Positions 1 through 20,061 of a stretch of 64,000 nt of DNA are shown here, in pieces. The DNA is taken from assembly GCA_022451925.1 (NCBI GenBank), contig JAKUNL010000001.1:73814-137813 (forward strand), written 5' to 3'. A program made the translations under genes and the position numbers. Below the pieces are notes generated by a model. The model ran no database searches and was not told the DNA's origin. It saw nothing but the letters and a program-made list of their open reading frames with translations. Positions within the stretch are counted from its first letter, which is position 1. The number at the start of each line of letters is the position of its first letter. Origin of the DNA: Dehalococcoidia bacterium. GTDB taxonomy: Bacteria; Chloroflexota; Dehalococcoidia; Lucifugimonadales; UBA3495.

Positions 1-299
1 TCGCCAACTTTGAGCAACGGACGTCGCACTAGTTTAGGTTCCTGCAGCATCAGATTAACCATCGCATCATCAGATAGCTCTTTATCTGCTAGACCCATTT
101 TCTTCAAACTGGGACTCCGACGAGCAAATATATTCTCCGTGCCCACCATGGTGGCTAGGGTACGAATCTCATTGTCAGTAAATGTCTCTTGGAAGAAATC
201 TCTTTCAGTTACTTCCAATCCGTTCTGCAAGAGTAACTCTCTCGCTTTACGGCAGGTTGATCAACGAGGCCACCAATAAAATTCAACGGTCTGGCTCAA
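1..299 (-). CDS. ArsC/Spx-family thiol oxidoreductase, selenocysteine (UxxC) candidate; C-terminus cut by the window edge
   Basis: Not a single ORF in the track. The minus frame reads M(TTG 297..299)SQTVEFYWWPR-[TGA 261..263]-STCRKARELLQNGLEVTERDFFQETFTDNEIRTLATMVGTENIFARRSPSLKKMGLADKELSDDAMVNLMLQEPKLVRRPLLKVG. There is no other stop down to position 1. GGAGG lies 5 nt upstream of the TTG, and an in-frame ATG at 312..314 is the alternative start. The TGA aligns with the first Cys of the N-terminal CxxC(R/K)KA motif of ArsC/Spx/YffB proteins. Confidence 0.6.
207..238 (-). promoter_or_regulatory. Stem-loop downstream of the in-frame UGA (SECIS candidate)
   Basis: Perfect 7-bp stem AGUUACU / AGUAACU (232..238 pairs with 207..213) with an 18-nt loop, starting 22 nt after the TGA at 261..263. 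Confidence 0.35.
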
Positions 300-399
300 C
301 TTGGCCTCCAACATGGCTGTAGTTTATTGAAATATTTCATCTAATTCCAGGACCGCCGGTTCATCTTATACCCGAAATAGTCTTATGAAAAGTGCAGTT

Positions 400-3015
400 T
401 CAGTCGCCTTCCAATGCCTGTTTTTGCAGTTCATACAGCTTATTTATTGCCTGGAGAGGCGTGATATTCGGAATATCCAATTCCTTAAGTAATGCCTGCA
501 ATCTACCGCCGTCGTTAAACAACGCTATCTGTTGTGCCGGTTCTCCCTTTAATCGTCCGGCTGATTTCCGATTAGAACCAATATCTCCGTTGGTCTCGGA
601 TTCCAGGGCCGCAAGCACCTCCCAAGCTCGACTAATCACGCCCTGGGGCAACCCAGCCAATTGGGCGACGTGGACACCGTAACTCTTATCCGTCCCTCCC
701 TGGACTATTTTATGCAGGAACACTACGCTGTCCCCGTCTTCGGTAACCGCCACACTACAGTTACGTACACCAGGTAAATTGGCCGAAAGTTGGGTCAATT
801 CATGATAATGGGTGGCGAACAGGGTCTTACAACCAAGTCTTGGATCATTATGGATATGCTCTATGACCGAACGGGCAATGGCGAGGCCGTCATAAGTGCT
901 GGTACCTCGACCTATCTCATCAAGTATCACCAGTGACCGGGGTGTAGCCTGGTTAAGTATAGCAGCGGTCTCAACCATCTCTACCATGAATGTAGATTGT
1001 CCGGTCGCTAGATCGTCCTGTAACCCCACTCTGGTGAATATGCGGTCAACCAACCCTATAGTGGCCTCAGACGCTGGAACAAAGGAGCCAATCTGGGCCA
1101 TTAAAGTGATAATTGCCACCTGACGAATGTAAGTGGATTTGCCCGCCATATTAGGTCCAGTCAGTACCATCACACGAGTCTCTTCATTGGAGAGTTCAAC
1201 ATCGTTCGGCACGTATGTACCGGTATCCAATACGCGTTCCACAACCGGATGACGACCATTCACAACATGAATTGTATTCTCTTGATTCAATTTTGGCCTG
1301 ATGTAACCACTCTCAACCGCGGTGTCAGCAAGACTTGAGAAAACATCCAATCTAGCGATCCCATCAGCGATACTGCTAATGGAACTGGCGGATTCTGCTA
1401 ACTGGGCGCAAATCCTGAAATAGACGGATTTCTCTACTTCTTCCAACCGTTCCCTGGCGTTCAACACTAGAGCCTCGTACTCTTTCAATTCAGGCACTAT
1501 GTACCGTTCGGCATTGGTCAGAGTCTGGCGACGTATGTAATCATCAGGAACCTTATCGATATTGACCTTGCTGACCTCGATATAATACCCAAAGACCTGG
1601 TTATAACCGACCTTGAGGCCTTTGACGCCAGTGCGGTCCCTCTCACGTTGTTCTAGTCCTGCGATGTATTTCCGGGCGTTAATAGAGGCATTTTTGAGGT
1701 CGTCTACCTCCGGTGCAAATCCTGGTTTGATGACGTTCCCATCACCAATCGCGCCTACCGGGTCTGGGGCAATCGAATCTTCAATCAATGAGCAGGTCTC
1801 AGGCATAGGTCGCAGTTGGGTTTTCAGCCAGTCCAGATCTGAAGAGTCGATTAGTGCGAGGAGTGTCGGCACCGAAGACAATCCGTCTTTCAGGGCGATG
1901 AGTTCTCTAGGATTGACCATACCGGAGACTATCTTACCCACGATGCGCTCAAGGTCGGAAACCTTACTCAGCGCCGAGATGACATTTGTCCGTTTAAGGC
2001 CATCTACATAAAAATGATCCACCGCGTCCAGGCGTTCTTCCAATTTCTCCAAGTCGAGTAAAGGTTGGCCGAGCCACTGACGCAGTAAACGGCCGCCCAT
2101 AGGAGTCTTGGTACGGTCTAGAGCTGTTAGTAGCGAAAGCTCTTTGCTGTCAGTCCGGCCAGCAGAAAATAACTCCAAATTTCGGCGCGTCTGGGCATCC
2201 AAGGCCATGAAGCTGCCTGTGGCATAGATTGACAGGTTTTTCAATTGGAGTTTGGCTGATTTTTGCGTCCTGGTTAAATAATCAACGATAGCCCCTGCAG
2301 CTGCGATAACTAAATCCATCCCTTCACAGCCGAAAGACTCCAACGTCAAGATACCGAAATGTGACAACAACGCCCGACGAGCTTCTTCCAAATGAAAAGT
2401 TCTGGATTCCACAGGCGTGACTTCGTAATTACGTCCAACTATGTTGCTTCTGGACTCCGCCCAATCGGGTAGGTCATCAAAGTTAGAAACCAAGACTTCA
2501 GCGGCCTCGATACGTTCCAACTCCAAGGGCAACTCATCTAAAGATAGCTCAGTGGCTACAAATTCACCAGTAGAGATGTCCACATATGCTAGGCCGGCTC
2601 GTTCGCCTGAATCTGAAACGGCAGCCAAGAAGTTATTAGTTTTATGATCTAGGAGGGCCGATTCCACTACGGTACCCGGAGTAACAATCCTCACTACATC
2701 GCGGTCAACAAGACCTTTGGAAGTTATTGGGTCAGAGATTTGTTCGCAGATAGCGACCTTGTGGCCTTTCTTAATAAGTCGAGCAAGGTATGAATCCAAG
2801 GAATGGGCAGGTACGCCGGCAAGTGGAACCTTCAAGTCTTTGCCCATGCTTCTGGAGGTGAGAGTAATCTCGAGCTCCTTAGCGAAGAGCACAGCATCAT
2901 CATCAAATGTTTCATAAAAGTCACCCATCCGGAACATCAGAATCGAATCAGGATGAGCGTTTTTGATATTGAGATATTGGCGGCGAATCGGAGTCAACTG
3001 CCCAACCCTTCCCAA
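400..3015 (-). CDS. mutS: DNA mismatch repair protein MutS
   Basis: 871-aa ORF with FRMGDFYETF mismatch-binding motif, Walker A GPNMAGKST and DEIGRGTSTYDG. TTG start. Confidence 0.95.
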   Translation of the reverse strand: MGRVGQLTPIRRQYLNIKNAHPDSILMFRMGDFYETFDDDAVLFAKELEITLTSRSMGKDLKVPLAGVPAHSLDSYLARLIKKGHKVAICEQISDPITSKGLVDRDVVRIVTPGTVVESALLDHKTNNFLAAVSDSGERAGLAYVDISTGEFVATELSLDELPLELERIEAAEVLVSNFDDLPDWAESRSNIVGRNYEVTPVESRTFHLEEARRALLSHFGILTLESFGCEGMDLVIAAAGAIVDYLTRTQKSAKLQLKNLSIYATGSFMALDAQTRRNLELFSAGRTDSKELSLLTALDRTKTPMGGRLLRQWLGQPLLDLEKLEERLDAVDHFYVDGLKRTNVISALSKVSDLERIVGKIVSGMVNPRELIALKDGLSSVPTLLALIDSSDLDWLKTQLRPMPETCSLIEDSIAPDPVGAIGDGNVIKPGFAPEVDDLKNASINARKYIAGLEQRERDRTGVKGLKVGYNQVFGYYIEVSKVNIDKVPDDYIRRQTLTNAERYIVPELKEYEALVLNARERLEEVEKSVYFRICAQLAESASSISSIADGIARLDVFSSLADTAVESGYIRPKLNQENTIHVVNGRHPVVERVLDTGTYVPNDVELSNEETRVMVLTGPNMAGKSTYIRQVAIITLMAQIGSFVPASEATIGLVDRIFTRVGLQDDLATGQSTFMVEMVETAAILNQATPRSLVILDEIGRGTSTYDGLAIARSVIEHIHNDPRLGCKTLFATHYHELTQLSANLPGVRNCSVAVTEDGDSVVFLHKIVQGGTDKSYGVHVAQLAGLPQGVISRAWEVLAALESETNGDIGSNRKSAGRLKGEPAQQIALFNDGGRLQALLKELDIPNITPLQAINKLYELQKQALEGD

Positions 3016-9463: not shown

Positions 9464-10033
9464 TTAATCAGATTTAGCTGCAGAGCTCCCAACTAGGATA
9501 CGTTCAACTTCGGGGAACAGGGCCTCGGCCCGCTCCTGACACTGTTCGTCGGTCAGGCTAGAAAGGGGGTGTTCAGCCACAATGTACTCGAAGTCGGGCA
9601 CACCCATCATACGGGTCATAGCTTTGGCCGTGTTGTTAAATACGTGGGTGATAATCGACGCAGTGGGCAGGCCCAGGCGTTCCATCTCTATTCCATCGTG
9701 CACACTGCACGAACTGCAGGAACCTCAATCCCCTATCCCGGTAATCAGAATGTCCACTTCATTAAGCATGTTCTGAACCACGTCCGGCTTGGTGGGAAGC
9801 GACGCCGAGTGTTTGTTGTAATAAACAATATCTTTCAGGTCATACTTATCATTTAGCATCTGGCCTAAAATGTGTAGAACTTTATCCGAATTGGCCTTGG
9901 AGTTTTCCAGTAGACCGAGTGTCTTGCCCGATAATGTATCGGGGCGCTCATTCAACCTAAAATCGCCGGACGATAACGAAGTTCCGGTAGGGTTAACCAA
10001 TCTCATGTTTCTAACTTCTACGGTCTCAGCCAT
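9464..10033 (-). CDS. UGSC-motif (seleno)protein candidate; needs UGA 9725..9727 decoded as Sec
   Basis: Track ORFs 9725..10033 and 9464..9703 are in the same frame, separated only by TGA plus 7 codons. The joined product is ...NEVDILITGIGD-U-GSCSSCSVHDGIEMERLG... (189 aa). GGAGG-N4-ATG precedes 10033. The distal piece has no ATG or SD of its own. Confidence 0.65.
9705..9719 (-). promoter_or_regulatory. Short stem-loop just 3' of the in-frame UGA (possible SECIS core)
   Basis: CUGCA-GUUCG-UGCAG begins 5 nt after the UGA. The alternative pairing is GUGCA-GUG-UGCAC. The stem is short, so SECIS competence is unproven. Confidence 0.3.
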
Positions 10034-14821: not shown

Positions 14822-14909
14822 GGAGGGGTGGGTGAGTGGTTAAAGCCACCAGACTGTAAATCTGGCGTCCGGAAGGGCTTCGCAGGTTCGAATCCTGCCC
14901 CCTCCACCA
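14822..14909 (+). tRNA. tRNA-Tyr (GUA), long variable arm, CCA encoded
   Basis: Acceptor GGAGGGG/CCCCTCC, anticodon arm CCAGA-CTGTAAA-TCTGG, T arm GCAGG-TTCGAAT-CCTGC. Confidence 0.9.
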
Positions 14910-14993
14910 TCCATTATGGACTCCGGCCTAACGGTCGGTTTAATTACCCAGACATGCAACAGGGACAAGATAAAGGCAGCCGTTAATCTATCA

Positions 14994-15068
14994 GCCCAGA
15001 TAGCTCAGCGGCAGAGCGCGTTCTTGGTAAGAACGAGGTCGGCGGTTCAATCCCGCCTCTGGGCTCCA
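14994..15068 (+). tRNA. tRNA-Thr (GGU), CCA encoded
   Basis: Acceptor GCCCAGA/TCTGGGC, anticodon arm CGTTC-TTGGTAA-GAACG, T arm GGCGG-TTCAATC-CCGCC. Confidence 0.9.
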
Positions 15069-15130
15069 GTTAAGAATTCGGCCAAATCATAAGGGACCGA
15101 GAAGAGTATCAGGGAGGACACCTAAAAAAG

Positions 15131-16315
15131 ATGGCTAAACAAGCATTTGACAGAACTAAAGATCACTTAAACGTAGGCACGATTGGCCACGTGGACCACG
15201 GCAAAACTACATTGACTTCAGCCATCACAAAGGTTTTGGCAGACCAGGGTTTGGCCAACTACCTGGATATGGACAGCATCGATAACGCTCCAGAAGAAAA
15301 GTCTCGAGGCGTAACCATCGCTATCGCCCACGTAGAGTATGAGTCTGCGGGTCGGCACTACGCACACGTAGACTGCCCTGGCCACGCCGACTACATCAAG
15401 AACATGATTACCGGTGCTGCCCAGATGGACGGAGCGGTCTTAGTAGTGAGTGCACCGGATGGACCCATGCCACAAACTCGGGAGCACATCCTATTGGCCC
15501 GCCAGGTTGAAGTTCCCAAAATACTAGTCGCACTTAACAAATGTGACATGATGGATGACGAAGAACTTCTTGAACTGGTGGAGCTTGAGGTACGCGAGCT
15601 GCTCAGCCGCTACGGATACCCTGGTGACGACACCCCCATCGTCCGAGTTAGTGGTCTTAAAGCCATAGAAGGGGATCCAGATGCAGTAACCGGAGTCCTA
15701 AATCTGGTTGAAGCCATGGATGACTACATCCCAGTCCCTGAACGTGTGACTGACCGTCCATTCCTAATGCCGATTGAAGACGTATTCGGCATCAAAGGGC
15801 GTGGTACCGTGGTAACCGGTAGGGTGGAACGTGGCACGTTAAATGTCGGTTCAGCTGTTGAGATCATACGCTGGGGTGACGTCCGCGAGACCGTCGCCAC
15901 AGGTTTGGAAATGTTCCATAAAAACTTGGAAACTACTCAGGCTGGAGACGCAGTCGGGATCCTTCTACGCGGTGTTGATCGGGAAGAAGTAGAACGTGGT
16001 CAGGTTCTAGTAGCGCCCGGCACCATGAGTCCGTACACGAAAGCTGAAGCTGAGGTTTACATCCTTAGTCGCGATGAAGGTGGACGGCACACTCCGTTCT
16101 TCTCCGGCTACAAACCTCAATTCTACATAAGGACCTCTGATATAACGGGATCCTGCACGTTGCCCGACGGTGTTGAGATGGTCATGCCTGGCGACAATGT
16201 AAAGATGGAAATAGAACTGATGAGTCCAGTACCACTAGAAGAGCAGATGCGCTTTGCTATCCGCGAAGGCGGCCGCACTGTGGGATCAGGAGTCATCACC
16301 AAGGTTGTGGAGTAA
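15131..16315 (+). CDS. tuf: Elongation factor Tu
   Basis: 394 aa with [18 protein letters not shown] and NKCD. GGAGG SD upstream. Confidence 0.97.
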
Positions 16316-16318
16316 CTC

Positions 16319-16489
16319 ATGGCCAGGAAAACAGCCGACGTCAGGCAGATCATAACGCTACAATGCGGCGACTGCCGCGAGCGTAACTACACTTCTATGA
16401 AAAACCGGCGCAACGACCCCAACAGGATGGAATTACGAAAGTATTGCTCAAGGTGTCGTACGCACAAGACTCATCGTGAAGTGAGGTAG
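16319..16489 (+). CDS. rpmG: 50S ribosomal protein L33 (zinc-ribbon form)
   Basis: Below the ORF-track size cut. Hand translation: MARKTADVRQIITLQCGDCRERNYTSMKNRRNDPNRMELRKYCSRCRTHKTHREVR. Canonical position between tuf and secE. Confidence 0.9.
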   Translation: MARKTADVRQIITLQCGDCRERNYTSMKNRRNDPNRMELRKYCSRCRTHKTHREVR

Positions 16490-16495
16490 CGACCC

Positions 16496-16732
16496 ATGGC
16501 TAGGGCATCATCACGCAGCCAACGCGTTGTAACTCCAGCCAGTGGAGGACGTGTTGGACCAGTATCTTTTCTCAGGGAAACCTATTCGGAATTACAGAAA
16601 TCCGTCTGGCCCAGCAGGGAAGAGACTTCACGGTTGACCATGGTGGTCATTGTGTTGGCGATCGCAGCAGGATTCTTCCTAGGCGGCTTAGACCGAGTTT
16701 TCGCAGAGGTCTTTGCTCGGTTGATATTTTAA
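16496..16732 (+). CDS. secE: Preprotein translocase subunit SecE
   Basis: 78 aa with a single C-terminal TM helix and the FLRETYSELQKSVWPSREE motif. Position rpmG-secE-nusG. Confidence 0.85.
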   Translation: MARASSRSQRVVTPASGGRVGPVSFLRETYSELQKSVWPSREETSRLTMVVIVLAIAAGFFLGGLDRVFAEVFARLIF

Positions 16733-16835
16733 AAGAACAGGCCGGAGAGCAGATAAATAAACGCTACAAGGTAAGGAAATGGGGCTCGTTTTAACGTAGC
16801 CCCTTTCTGCTTGACCTGAAACTGGATACAGCATT

Positions 16836-17414
16836 ATGACGACAAAAAATACATCAGAATCCCAAGAGACTCAGGATTCTCGTTGGTATATCGTCCACAC
16901 CTACTCAGGTCAAGAAGACCTCGTGGAGAAGAACCTTCGCTTGCGCATTCAAAGTTTGGACATGCAAGACCGCATCAACTCGGTCTTGGTCCCCACAGAA
17001 GAAGAAGTTATCTTCAAAGATGGAGAAAGGCGATCTGAGCGTAAAAAACTATTCCCAGGCTACATCTTGGTACAAATGATAATGGACGATGAAAGCTGGT
17101 ATGCAGTTCGCAACACCCCTGGCGTTACAGGGTTTGTCTCCACTGAAGATGAACACGACAAGCGCCCCAAACCGGTCCCGCTCGAAGATAAACAAATTGA
17201 AGACATCCTGAAGCAGGTCGACTCTGATCCTAGTCGCGTAAGCATTGGTCTGGAACGTGGTGAGACAGTTCGCATCACTGAAGGTCCATTCGTGGACTTC
17301 ATCGGTTCAATCAACGATGTGGATGATAGTAAGGGTAAAGTCAGAGTTATGGTATCCTTCTTCGGGCGCGAAACTCCAGTGGAACTGGATTTCCTACAAG
17401 TAGAAAGAATCTAA
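16836..17414 (+). CDS. nusG: Transcription termination/antitermination factor NusG
   Basis: 192 aa with WYIVHTYSGQE NGN start and a C-terminal KOW (GETVRITEGPFVDFIG). Confidence 0.95.
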   Translation: MTTKNTSESQETQDSRWYIVHTYSGQEDLVEKNLRLRIQSLDMQDRINSVLVPTEEEVIFKDGERRSERKKLFPGYILVQMIMDDESWYAVRNTPGVTGFVSTEDEHDKRPKPVPLEDKQIEDILKQVDSDPSRVSIGLERGETVRITEGPFVDFIGSINDVDDSKGKVRVMVSFFGRETPVELDFLQVERI

Positions 17415-17481
17415 AGTTCAAAAGTCCAAAGATTATTAGCCTGGTTAAAACACACCAATAAAGTAACTGAAGGAGCCCCCG

Positions 17482-17907
17482 TTGGCGAAGAAAGTTAGAG
17501 CCATCATCAAACTGCAGTTGGAAGCCGGCAAAGCCACACCAGCGCCACCCGTGGGCCCTGCGCTAGGCCAGCACGGCGTTAATATCATGGGCTTCGTCAA
17601 GGAATATAACGCCAAGACAGCCAACCAAGCTGGCACGATAGTGCCGGTTCACTTGACCGTTTACGAGGACCGTTCCTTTACCTTCGTGACTCGCACTCCT
17701 CCGGCTTCGGACATGCTCCGTAAAGCCGCAGGAGTAGAAAAAGGCAGTTCTGAATTCCGTGCAGGAAGCGTAGGCAAGATTAGCAAACAGCAACTGAAAG
17801 AAATCGCCGAATCAAAGCTGGCGGATCTAAACGCTGGAGGCGTTGATGAAGCAATGGCCATCATTGCCGGGACTGCCCGCAGCATGGGCATCGACGTAGG
17901 AGAATAG
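17482..17907 (+). CDS. rplK: 50S ribosomal protein L11
   Basis: [30 protein letters not shown] start. Confidence 0.95.
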
Positions 17908-17912
17908 CGACC

Positions 17913-18629
17913 ATGGTCAAGCGAAGTCGGCGTTTCAGCGCCGTCGCAGAAAGAATAGACATAGAAAAAACCTATGAGCCGAAGGAGGCCATGGAACTTC
18001 TAAAAGAGGTCTCCACCGCCAAATTCGATGAAACAGTTGAACTTCACATTAGGACCAATGTCGACCCACGTCACGCCGACCAGATGATCCGCGGCGTTTG
18101 TCGCCTTCCACATGGTTTGGGTAAAGTAATCCGCGTGGTGGTTTTCGCTGGAGTTGAGGGTGCAGAGGAAGCCCGGGCCGCCGGAGCCGACTTTGTTGGT
18201 GAAGACGACCTCATCGAGAAAATCGAAGCTGGCTGGGACGACTTTGAAGTTGGACTTGCTACTCCTCAAATCATGCCCAAGATAGGTAAACTAGGCCGTA
18301 TTCTAGGAAGAAAAGGCCTTATGCCCAACCCTCGCTCTGGCACAATGGTTCAGCCACAGGATATGGGACGAGCCGTTGAAGAAGCCAAAGGCGGAAGAAC
18401 CGAATACAGGACTGACCGCACTGCGATCATCCACTCATCCGTCGGAAAAGTCAGCTTTAGTGCCGACCAACTCGTGGACAATCTCTCGTCCATTGCGAGC
18501 GCTATCGTTAGGGAACGACCAGATAGTCTCAAAGGACCGTTTTTTCGATCCGCTTACGTCACCTCGACCATGGGACCCAGCGTCCAACTGGAACTGTCGT
18601 CCTTGATGTCATTGGAGTCGCCTGAGTAA
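17913..18629 (+). CDS. rplA: 50S ribosomal protein L1
   Basis: 238 aa with FDETVELHIRTNVDPRHADQMIRG. Confidence 0.95.
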   Translation: MVKRSRRFSAVAERIDIEKTYEPKEAMELLKEVSTAKFDETVELHIRTNVDPRHADQMIRGVCRLPHGLGKVIRVVVFAGVEGAEEARAAGADFVGEDDLIEKIEAGWDDFEVGLATPQIMPKIGKLGRILGRKGLMPNPRSGTMVQPQDMGRAVEEAKGGRTEYRTDRTAIIHSSVGKVSFSADQLVDNLSSIASAIVRERPDSLKGPFFRSAYVTSTMGPSVQLELSSLMSLESPE

Positions 18630-18753
18630 CCCATCCCTGAGATAGATTGCCAGTCACAATTTAGTCTATAATTTAGTTAGTAACACGCCAAAGACAGCGG
18701 GCCCCTCAAAGGGATAAATGCAAAAGCAGCCTGCCGAGGCGCGACGAACAGTT

Positions 18754-18803
18754 ATTCGGATAACCGAATCCCTACGCCGCGTTGTTTGGTGTAGGGATTT
18801 TTT
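18754..18803 (+). promoter_or_regulatory. rplJ (L10) leader with two overlapping hairpins; the second is an intrinsic terminator/attenuator
   Basis: Hairpin 1 is attcgg-ataa-ccgaat (18754..18769). Hairpin 2 is aatccctac-N15-gtagggatt followed by TTTT (18767..18803). They share 3 nt and lie within a 265-nt rplA-rplJ spacer. Confidence 0.5.
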
Positions 18804-18894
18804 AATCTTGCCGTAAAATCAACCAAACCTTGAATAGTACTTAATAAACAAAATTGGTCAACATCAGGTTTGAAAACGGACATGGAGGAATAAA

Positions 18895-19605
18895 TTGCCC
18901 ACCCAGCAGAAGATAGACCGAGTCCAAGACATTAAGGACCGGTTAGAGCGCAGCAGCATAACAATGACCGCCAGTTATTCGGGCATCACAGTTAACGAGA
19001 TGATCGAACTAAGAAGGGCCATGCGGGCCGGTGGAATTGACTTCACCATAGTCAAGAACACTCTGCTAAACCTGGCCGCCACAGAGGCAAACAAGCCCCA
19101 AATTAAAGAGATTATCAATGGCCCCACTGCCGTTGCTATCGCATACGACGACCCAGCAGCAGCAGCCAAGACGCTGGCTGATTTCATTCGGGACGGCGGA
19201 ACGTCCCTGGCAATCTTAGGGGCTGTCATGGGCGACGGCGCTCCCATGGCCTCTGGGGATGTAACAAAACTTGCATCACTACCGCCCAAACCTGTCTTGC
19301 TAGCCATGCTTTTAGGCCAGATGCAGACACCTATCGCCCGACTAGCAACCGTAATGAACGGCCCTATCCAAGCATTAGACAACGTACTCCAAGCAAGGGT
19401 ACGTCAAATGATGGAATCGAACCCTGTGCCTGCCGAATCTCCGAACAGCACCACAGAAACTGCAGTACCTGTAGGAGTTCCAGAATCGACTGCCGAAGAG
19501 GCAACAGGCGACGAAGAAGATACCACCGAATCCGAAGGGAGCACGGACGGACTGGAATCCGAAGCCACTGTTAAAGAAAATACCGCCGAAGAAACGTCGG
19601 AATGA
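18895..19605 (+). CDS. rplJ: 50S ribosomal protein L10 with about 60-aa acidic C-terminal extension
   Basis: 236 aa. The L10 core is followed by an ESNPVPAESPNSTTETAVP...EEDTTESEGSTDGLESEATVKENTAEETSE tail. TTG start. Confidence 0.9.
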   Translation: MPTQQKIDRVQDIKDRLERSSITMTASYSGITVNEMIELRRAMRAGGIDFTIVKNTLLNLAATEANKPQIKEIINGPTAVAIAYDDPAAAAKTLADFIRDGGTSLAILGAVMGDGAPMASGDVTKLASLPPKPVLLAMLLGQMQTPIARLATVMNGPIQALDNVLQARVRQMMESNPVPAESPNSTTETAVPVGVPESTAEEATGDEEDTTESEGSTDGLESEATVKENTAEETSE

Positions 19606-19668
19606 TAAATCCAGAATCCCACTTAATCCAATGAATTAAAAGCCTTAAAGGCATAAAAAGGAGACATC

Positions 19669-20061
19669 ATGACTAAAGACGAGCTTATAGAAGCAATCAA
19701 AGGAATGAACGTGGTCGAACTGGCCGACGTCGTCAAGGCACTTGAAGAAGAGTTTGGCGTCAGCGCAGCCGCACCAGTAGCCGTCGCCGCTGCACCCGCA
19801 GCCGGTGCAGCACCTGCTGAAGGCGGAGCGGCCGCTGCTTCCGATGATCAGGATTCGTTCGCCGTCAGCCTAAAAGACATCGGCCCCAATAAAATTAACG
19901 TTATTAAGGCTGTACGCGAGGTCACCGCTCTTGGACTGCGCGAGGCCAAAGAACTAGTCGAGTCGGCTCCAACCGCCATCAAGGAAGGAGTTGCCAAAGA
20001 CGAGGCCGACGATATTAAGAGCAAGCTAGAAGAAGCCGGCGCAGTGGTTGAGTTAGGTTAA
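19669..20061 (+). CDS. rplL: 50S ribosomal protein L7/L12
   Basis: 130 aa with an Ala-rich hinge and the C-terminal [22 protein letters not shown]. Confidence 0.95.

Follow-up and report, generated by a model that had tools for sequence, protein, structure and literature searches.

An in-frame UGA that almost certainly encodes selenocysteine in a small ArsC/Spx-fold redox protein of marine Dehalococcoidia

At the left edge of a 64,000-nucleotide stretch of Dehalococcoidia DNA (hereafter the window, meaning the whole stretch analysed), the minus strand carries a reading frame interrupted by a single TGA, which raises the question of whether this codon ends a gene or is read as selenocysteine (Sec). 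Translation bore out what an earlier reading made from the letters of this DNA (the sequence-only reading) had seen: the frame is open save for the TGA at 261..263, and the ORF list holds nothing here but an antisense ORF at 10..279. From the TTG at 299..297 to position 1 the translation is LSQTVEFYWWPR*STCRKARELLLQNGLEVTERDFF...LLKVG, the TGA at 263..261 being its sole stop. Written as a protein, 299..1 of the minus strand reads M/LSQTVEFYWWPR-TGA-STCRKARELLLQNGLEV. The N-terminal peptide is MSQTVEFYWWPR, FYWWPR directly precedes the TGA, and the stretch from the TGA to the window edge is STCRKARELLLQNGLEVTERDFFQETFTDNEIRTLATMVGTENIFARRSPSLKKMGLADKELSDDAMVNLMLQEPKLVRRPLLKVG. The remaining 20 codons lie off the edge; in protein P0001, which is 98% identical, they are DKLWVGGSNAAVEAAIIEAK. 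The peptide given by the earlier reading omitted one Leu (ELLLQ, not ELLQ) and was otherwise exact. Our comparisons of sequences lead us to conclude that the TGA at 263..261 is almost certainly a Sec codon in a small ArsC/Spx-fold redox protein of marine, SAR202-type Dehalococcoidia. The features of the reading frame are as follows.

1..299, minus strand: putative Sec-containing ArsC/Spx-family gene, codons 1-99 of 119 (from translation, PF03960, relatives P0001-P0004 and 19 genomic loci)
305..309, minus strand: Shine-Dalgarno sequence GGAGG, 5 nt 5' of the start codon (from the sequence)
297..299, minus strand: likely TTG start codon (same position in 17 Dehalococcoidia loci; TTG, with ATG in L007 and L015)
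261..263, minus strand: UGA, U13 of the U-S-T-C16 motif (from column conservation and alignment with Spx C10 and ArsC C12)
252..254, minus strand: TGC codon for Cys16, the predicted resolving Cys of UxxC (aligns with Spx Cys13)

The TTG at 299..297 is the likely translation start. The GGAGG noted earlier in front of it lies at 309..305, and GGAGG or GAGG stands at the equivalent place in the Dehalococcoidia loci. The span first assigned to the gene had begun at an ATG at 314..312; this ATG is not conserved, being either absent in relatives or followed by a stop (in frame in L001), and the start was corrected to the TTG. The 89-aa ORF at 10..279 on the plus strand is a shadow ORF antisense to the real gene, and a shadow of the same kind is found in L001 and L006.

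We examined the TGA in two sets of relatives. Firstly, a genome scan restricted to one genome per species yielded 19 loci, 17 from Dehalococcoidia/SAR202/Chloroflexota MAGs, one from a Syntrophaceae and one from another deltaproteobacterium. In all 19 the same column holds an in-frame TGA, and a Shine-Dalgarno sequence, a TTG or ATG start and the conserved N-terminal peptide precede it; the two deltaproteobacterial homologues keep it at only 36-42% identity. Secondly, a metagenome search with a DNA pattern in which the third base of each codon was left free returned 62 true homologues, every one with TGA and none with TGC or TGT. The recurrence of the codon at one column in 19/19 genomes and 62/62 metagenomic homologues is far beyond chance. 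Over the 12 codons upstream of the TGA, 48 codon differences from the window are synonymous and 15 non-synonymous, which supports purifying selection on the upstream peptide. Three more divergent clades also have TGA at this column, as DNA checks of their N-terminally truncated representatives showed. Thus, orthologues keep both the UGA and the coding sequence on either side of it, as in a selenoprotein gene.

Homologues with Cys at the Sec column, for which the sequence-only reading had proposed a search, were also found. The closest is P0004 (69% identical; FYWWPRCSSCRK), encoded by locus L020 with TGC in place of TGA and the only Cys form among the best 120 of the 515 proteins returned by our homologue search. 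Full-length CxxC representatives are P0123-P0133. These full-length Cys homologues have the same N-terminus as the window protein.

The same column places the codon within a known redox motif. With U replaced by C, the protein matches the Pfam ArsC family (PF03960) at 58 bits against a cutoff of 24 (E=1e-15), so the HMM alignment suggested earlier came out in favour of the family, and among NCBIfam models Spx/MgsR (TIGR01617) matches it best. The TGA had been placed at the first Cys of the ArsC/Spx/YffB motif, and the alignment agrees: U pairs with Spx Cys10 and E. coli ArsC Cys12, and Cys16 with Spx Cys13 (Ser in ArsC). An AlphaFold (AF2) model of the Cys form (pLDDT 87) predicts this Cys between strand 1 and helix 1, a position like that in thioredoxin-fold CxxC proteins, and the best PDB fold matches of the model are Spx, YffB and ArsC (TM 0.68-0.81).

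Family membership does not make the protein an arsenate reductase. Of the ArsC Arg triad, R94 has an equivalent, Gly stands opposite R107 and R60 falls out of register; the protein scores 48 bits against the TIGR00014 cutoff of 106. Because the triad is incomplete and the score falls short, we conclude from the alignments that it is not an arsenate reductase. Its role would instead lie in selenol/thiol redox chemistry, whether as a small oxidoreductase or as a switch of the Spx type.

If the UGA is decoded as Sec, a bacterial SECIS element is expected in the RNA, and in published bacterial SECIS elements the hallmark is a small apical loop, immediately 3' of the UGA, in which a G is conserved (PMC1088965). 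Two stem-loops come into consideration.

227..245, minus strand: SECIS-like hairpin GCGAGAG / AGUUA loop / CUCUUGC, 7 bp (from the minimum-free-energy structure and conservation of pairing)
207..238, minus strand: 7-bp stem-loop of the earlier reading, 238..232 paired with 213..207 (present in the window, unconserved)

The sequence-only reading had proposed SECIS prediction near the UGA. Rfam, searched over 1..600 at the gathering threshold and at E<=10, returned no SECIS or other relevant family and left the hairpin unmatched; the minimum-free-energy fold after the UGA is the hairpin 245..227. It begins 15 nt past the UGA, directly downstream with a small, G-containing apical loop, and in the window it continues to 252..220 through a lower stem of 4 bp. 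We regard it as the SECIS candidate. Its pairing is 100% across 18 distinct orthologous sequences, with one pair alternating between C-G (8) and U-A (10) and G-U tolerated at three others. In a wider set of 55 distinct sequences all seven pairs form in 53 and there is one mismatch in the other 2; the loop is AGUUG, AGUUA or AGUUU.

The hairpin coincides with a conserved peptide (K-A/V-R-E-L-L-L), and its conservation is therefore partly that of the protein; folding z-scores are unremarkable in some orthologues (-0.56, -0.66). This overlap gives room to a reading in which Sec is inserted but the SECIS is some other element, the 238..207 stem or a larger structure, and 245..227 is kept for its amino acids alone; that the close Cys form keeps the hairpin, and that the 238..207 stem is perfect in the window, fit such a reading as well. 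We consider it very unlikely, given the codons used. The stem Arg is AGR in 54/55 sequences, against CGN without exception for the Arg four codons earlier, the stem Glu is always GAG, and the stem Leu (Leu2) is CUC in 54/55. Base 2 of the Ala/Val codon and base 3 of the Leu codon combine as T-A in 30, C-G in 21, T-G in 4 and C-A in none (n=55). Such restriction to pairing-compatible codons points to selection on the RNA. Clades with different peptides, moreover, retain a hairpin at this offset: the two deltaproteobacterial genes fold the same hairpin although their residues differ here, and the three divergent clades have other stem sequences with the G-first loops GUG, GUC and GUU. The 238..207 stem, which is mutually exclusive with 245..227, fared differently across 19 orthologues: 72% of its cells are paired, no compensatory change was seen, and shuffled sequences did as well as the observed ones. 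The stem reported earlier therefore exists in the window, but the SECIS role proposed for it does not hold, since it is unconserved.

In L020 (365..736), the only close Cys form found, the SECIS-like hairpin is retained unchanged, which suggests a recent Sec-to-Cys conversion.

How databases represent this gene bears on a second alternative, namely that the true product is the annotated protein of 96-98 aa, started at an internal TTG or ATG, and that the 12 upstream codons are a leader ORF ending at the TGA. Most database gene calls have this form: when tallied for the best 120 of the 515 proteins, 116 were calls of 96-101 aa starting just past the TGA. We nevertheless give this alternative very little chance, less than that of a different SECIS. 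The internal starts are inconsistent between orthologues (MQNGLEV, MLLQKGLEV or MRELLLQ); the truncated product would lack strand 1 and the entire redox motif; the upstream FYWWPR extends the ArsC/Spx alignment in frame; and the full-length Cys homologues share the N-terminus. Three relatives, P0001-P0003 (76-98% identical), were called with the TGA read as Trp and reveal the full length, 119 aa from the TTG. One of the proteins, P0120, is named 'ArsC/Spx/MgsR family protein' by NCBI.

A pseudogene, or a TGA arising from sequencing or assembly error, might be suspected in a single window with one in-frame stop in a gene cut by the window edge, but it has next to no chance against the recurrence of this TGA across 19 independent genomes and across 62 contigs of metagenomes from many samples, the predominance of synonymous changes upstream, and the lack of frameshifts or additional stops, which the earlier reading had named as signs of decay.

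We then considered how UGA is used in the rest of the window, where two further genes are relevant.

400..3015, minus strand: mutS, directly upstream of the Sec gene, with a TGA stop at 402..400 (from the ORF list and tblastn synteny)
9464..10033, minus strand: UGSC-family selenoprotein gene, 189 aa, with its in-frame TGA at 9727..9725 (NF041046)

Reassignment of UGA across the genome, to Trp (code 4) or Gly (code 25), would account for the W at the TGA position in P0001-P0003, but is vanishingly improbable, as TGA terminates 16 of the window's 52 ORFs of 150 aa or more, mutS (402..400) among them, and read-through is needed by two genes only in 64 kb, both of redox families with Cys at that column. 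The second of these is the UGSC gene which had been reported about 9 kb away. It is real: running from 10033 to 9464 on the minus strand, it scores 142 bits against NF041046 (cutoff 125), has the motif ITGIGD-U-GSCSSC, and carries a perfect 7-bp hairpin, UCGUGCA-GUG-UGCACGA, at 9712..9696, 12 nt past the TGA at 9727..9725. By these sequence matches it is the second real selenoprotein gene in the window.

A further case was seen in locus L113, where a peroxiredoxin-like gene (714..1175, plus strand) lies beside a divergent Sec-ArsC/Spx-like gene and has been called as two pieces of 46 and 103 aa. Its frame runs on through a TGA at the peroxidatic position (AFYPFDWSPG-U-TKEMPAL), which makes the product a probable selenoprotein as well.

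As for the decoding machinery, ARAGORN on the 64-kb window found tRNA-Tyr and tRNA-Thr only and no tRNA-Sec, Pfam on 10 size-matched window ORFs gave no Sec machinery, and E. coli SelA, SelB and SelD, used as tblastn queries on the window and 624 kb of related loci, matched an EF-Tu paralogue only. With no selA, selB, selD or tRNA-Sec in the window or these 624 kb, we infer Sec decoding in this genome from other evidence. BSepDB (PMC13326102), a survey whose entry requirement was two or more Sec-pathway genes in each species, lists Dehalococcoidia MAGs that have a Sec system and 46-49 selenoproteins, and tRNA-Sec has been reported in Chloroflexi (PMC5389517). The proposal that the organism decodes UGA as Sec in thiol-redox proteins is supported by the comparative evidence.

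The window's sole SelB-like match is the EF-Tu gene itself (15131..16315), which belongs to a standard cluster at 14822..20061 comprising tRNA-Tyr, tRNA-Thr, EF-Tu, NusG, L11, L1, L10 and L7/L12; an L10 leader (Rfam RF00557) lies at 18670..18812.

We hold it to be highly probable that the full account, a Sec gene with its SECIS at 245..227 encoding an ArsC/Spx-fold UxxC redox protein, is the right one. Translation would start at the TTG at 299..297 behind GGAGG, and the ribosome would pass the UGA at 263..261 without terminating. The hairpin 245..227, within the coding sequence, would act as a bacterial SECIS and recruit SelB-GTP-Sec-tRNA(Sec), leading to insertion of Sec, as established knowledge of bacterial Sec decoding implies. 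The predicted product is a 119-residue protein of ArsC/Spx (thioredoxin-like) fold with Sec13 where helix 1 begins and Cys16 a turn further along. These two residues would form a reversible selenenylsulfide/selenol-thiol couple, with U-x-x-C in place of C-x-x-C.

How does this protein compare with known systems? Sec-containing ArsC-like proteins have been catalogued since 2005; the Sargasso Sea study described an 'Arsenate reductase 1, UxxS' form (PMC1088965), and the GOS selenoproteome of Zhang & Gladyshev (2008) lists 'Arsenate reductase 2, UxxC' (PMC2398784). The former differs in lacking the second Cys of the window protein, which is UxxC, not UxxS. The latter corresponds to NF041106 (ArsC family (seleno)protein), which shares the superfamily fold and a UxxC with Sec first and, like the window subfamily, is present in marine metagenomes. 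The window protein scores 34.7 bits against NF041106, below its cutoff of 85, whereas a GOS member scores 116, and the window protein is 24% identical to that 'Arsenate reductase 2' member. On these scores and this identity, we assign the window gene to a subfamily of its own, Spx-like in character, within a known kind of selenoprotein. A search for the motif YWWPR in part of the GOS supplementary sequences gave no match there, and our literature search found no paper on an Spx-like selenoprotein.

Among characterised proteins, Spx/MgsR (TIGR01617; B. subtilis Spx, PDB 1z3e, 3gfk and 7f75) provides the best HMM match, the best PDB sequence match and the top fold, although the full-length window protein, at 73.3 bits, falls marginally short of the TIGR01617 cutoff of 75.05. 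By alignment the likeness extends to the CxxC positions (U13-S-T-C16 against C10-T-S-C13), G52, R60 and R91/R92, all with equivalents in the window protein. The N-terminal CxxC switch at residues 10-13 of Spx thus has its counterpart, with Sec for the first Cys, and the Gly52 surface through which Spx binds the RNA polymerase alpha C-terminal domain has a putative equivalent in the G of V-G-T-E-N. Unlike Spx, the window protein has Sec in place of Cys10, 119 aa rather than 131, no Spx C-terminal extension, and a host that is a Chloroflexota and not a Firmicute. Grx-coupled ArsC (E. coli or R773; TIGR00014) has the same fold, with its nucleophile Cys12 at the Sec position and the R94 equivalent shared, and differs at R107 and R60 and in score as described above. 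The candidate hairpin, whose loop starts 22 nt past the UGA, resembles bacterial SECIS elements of the E. coli fdhF type and the bSECISearch consensus, differing from them in having no match to a curated Rfam model.

The setting of the gene is also conserved. In the window, 100 nt separate the Sec gene from mutS, which precedes it on the same strand, and scanning 1..700 for promoters and terminators gave no minus-strand site between the two. In relatives the Sec gene is followed by a 145-aa HAD-like gene (FFDVDYT motif) and then by mutL, all on one strand. This mutS-X-HAD-mutL order is found in nearly all Dehalococcoidia loci with enough flanking sequence; over 81 loci the counts were 63 for mutS, 65 for the HAD-like gene and 57 for mutL. 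It is kept across marine Dehalococcoidia down to about 54% MutS identity (for example L001, 3001..5734) and is absent in the two deltaproteobacterial homologues. The Sec gene is probably co-transcribed within a conserved mutS-X-HAD-mutL cluster.

A bolder proposal is that the protein is a regulator and not an enzyme, an Spx-type Sec redox switch whose selenenylsulfide would control RNA polymerase or the adjacent mismatch-repair genes and which became fixed in the mutS-X-HAD-mutL operon throughout marine SAR202/Dehalococcoidia. We think this unlikely. Our literature search found a role as a transcriptional or DNA-repair redox sensor described for no selenoprotein.

The finding places the organism, in all likelihood, among the selenocysteine-using marine Dehalococcoidia. 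For selenoprotein biology in general, the gene is an expected case and no surprise. The main practical value of the finding lies in correcting a widespread mis-annotation: hundreds of public gene calls are wrong, being either truncations of 96-101 aa or versions with 'W' at the Sec site, as if genetic code 4 applied, and since NF041106 misses the Spx-like subfamily, annotation pipelines keep truncating such genes. The position between mutS and mutL, combined with the Spx-like features, provides a concrete functional hypothesis for a selenoprotein that is widespread in the deep ocean; were the Spx-type switch to prove true, the protein would amount to a redox sensor for transcription or DNA repair that depends on selenium.
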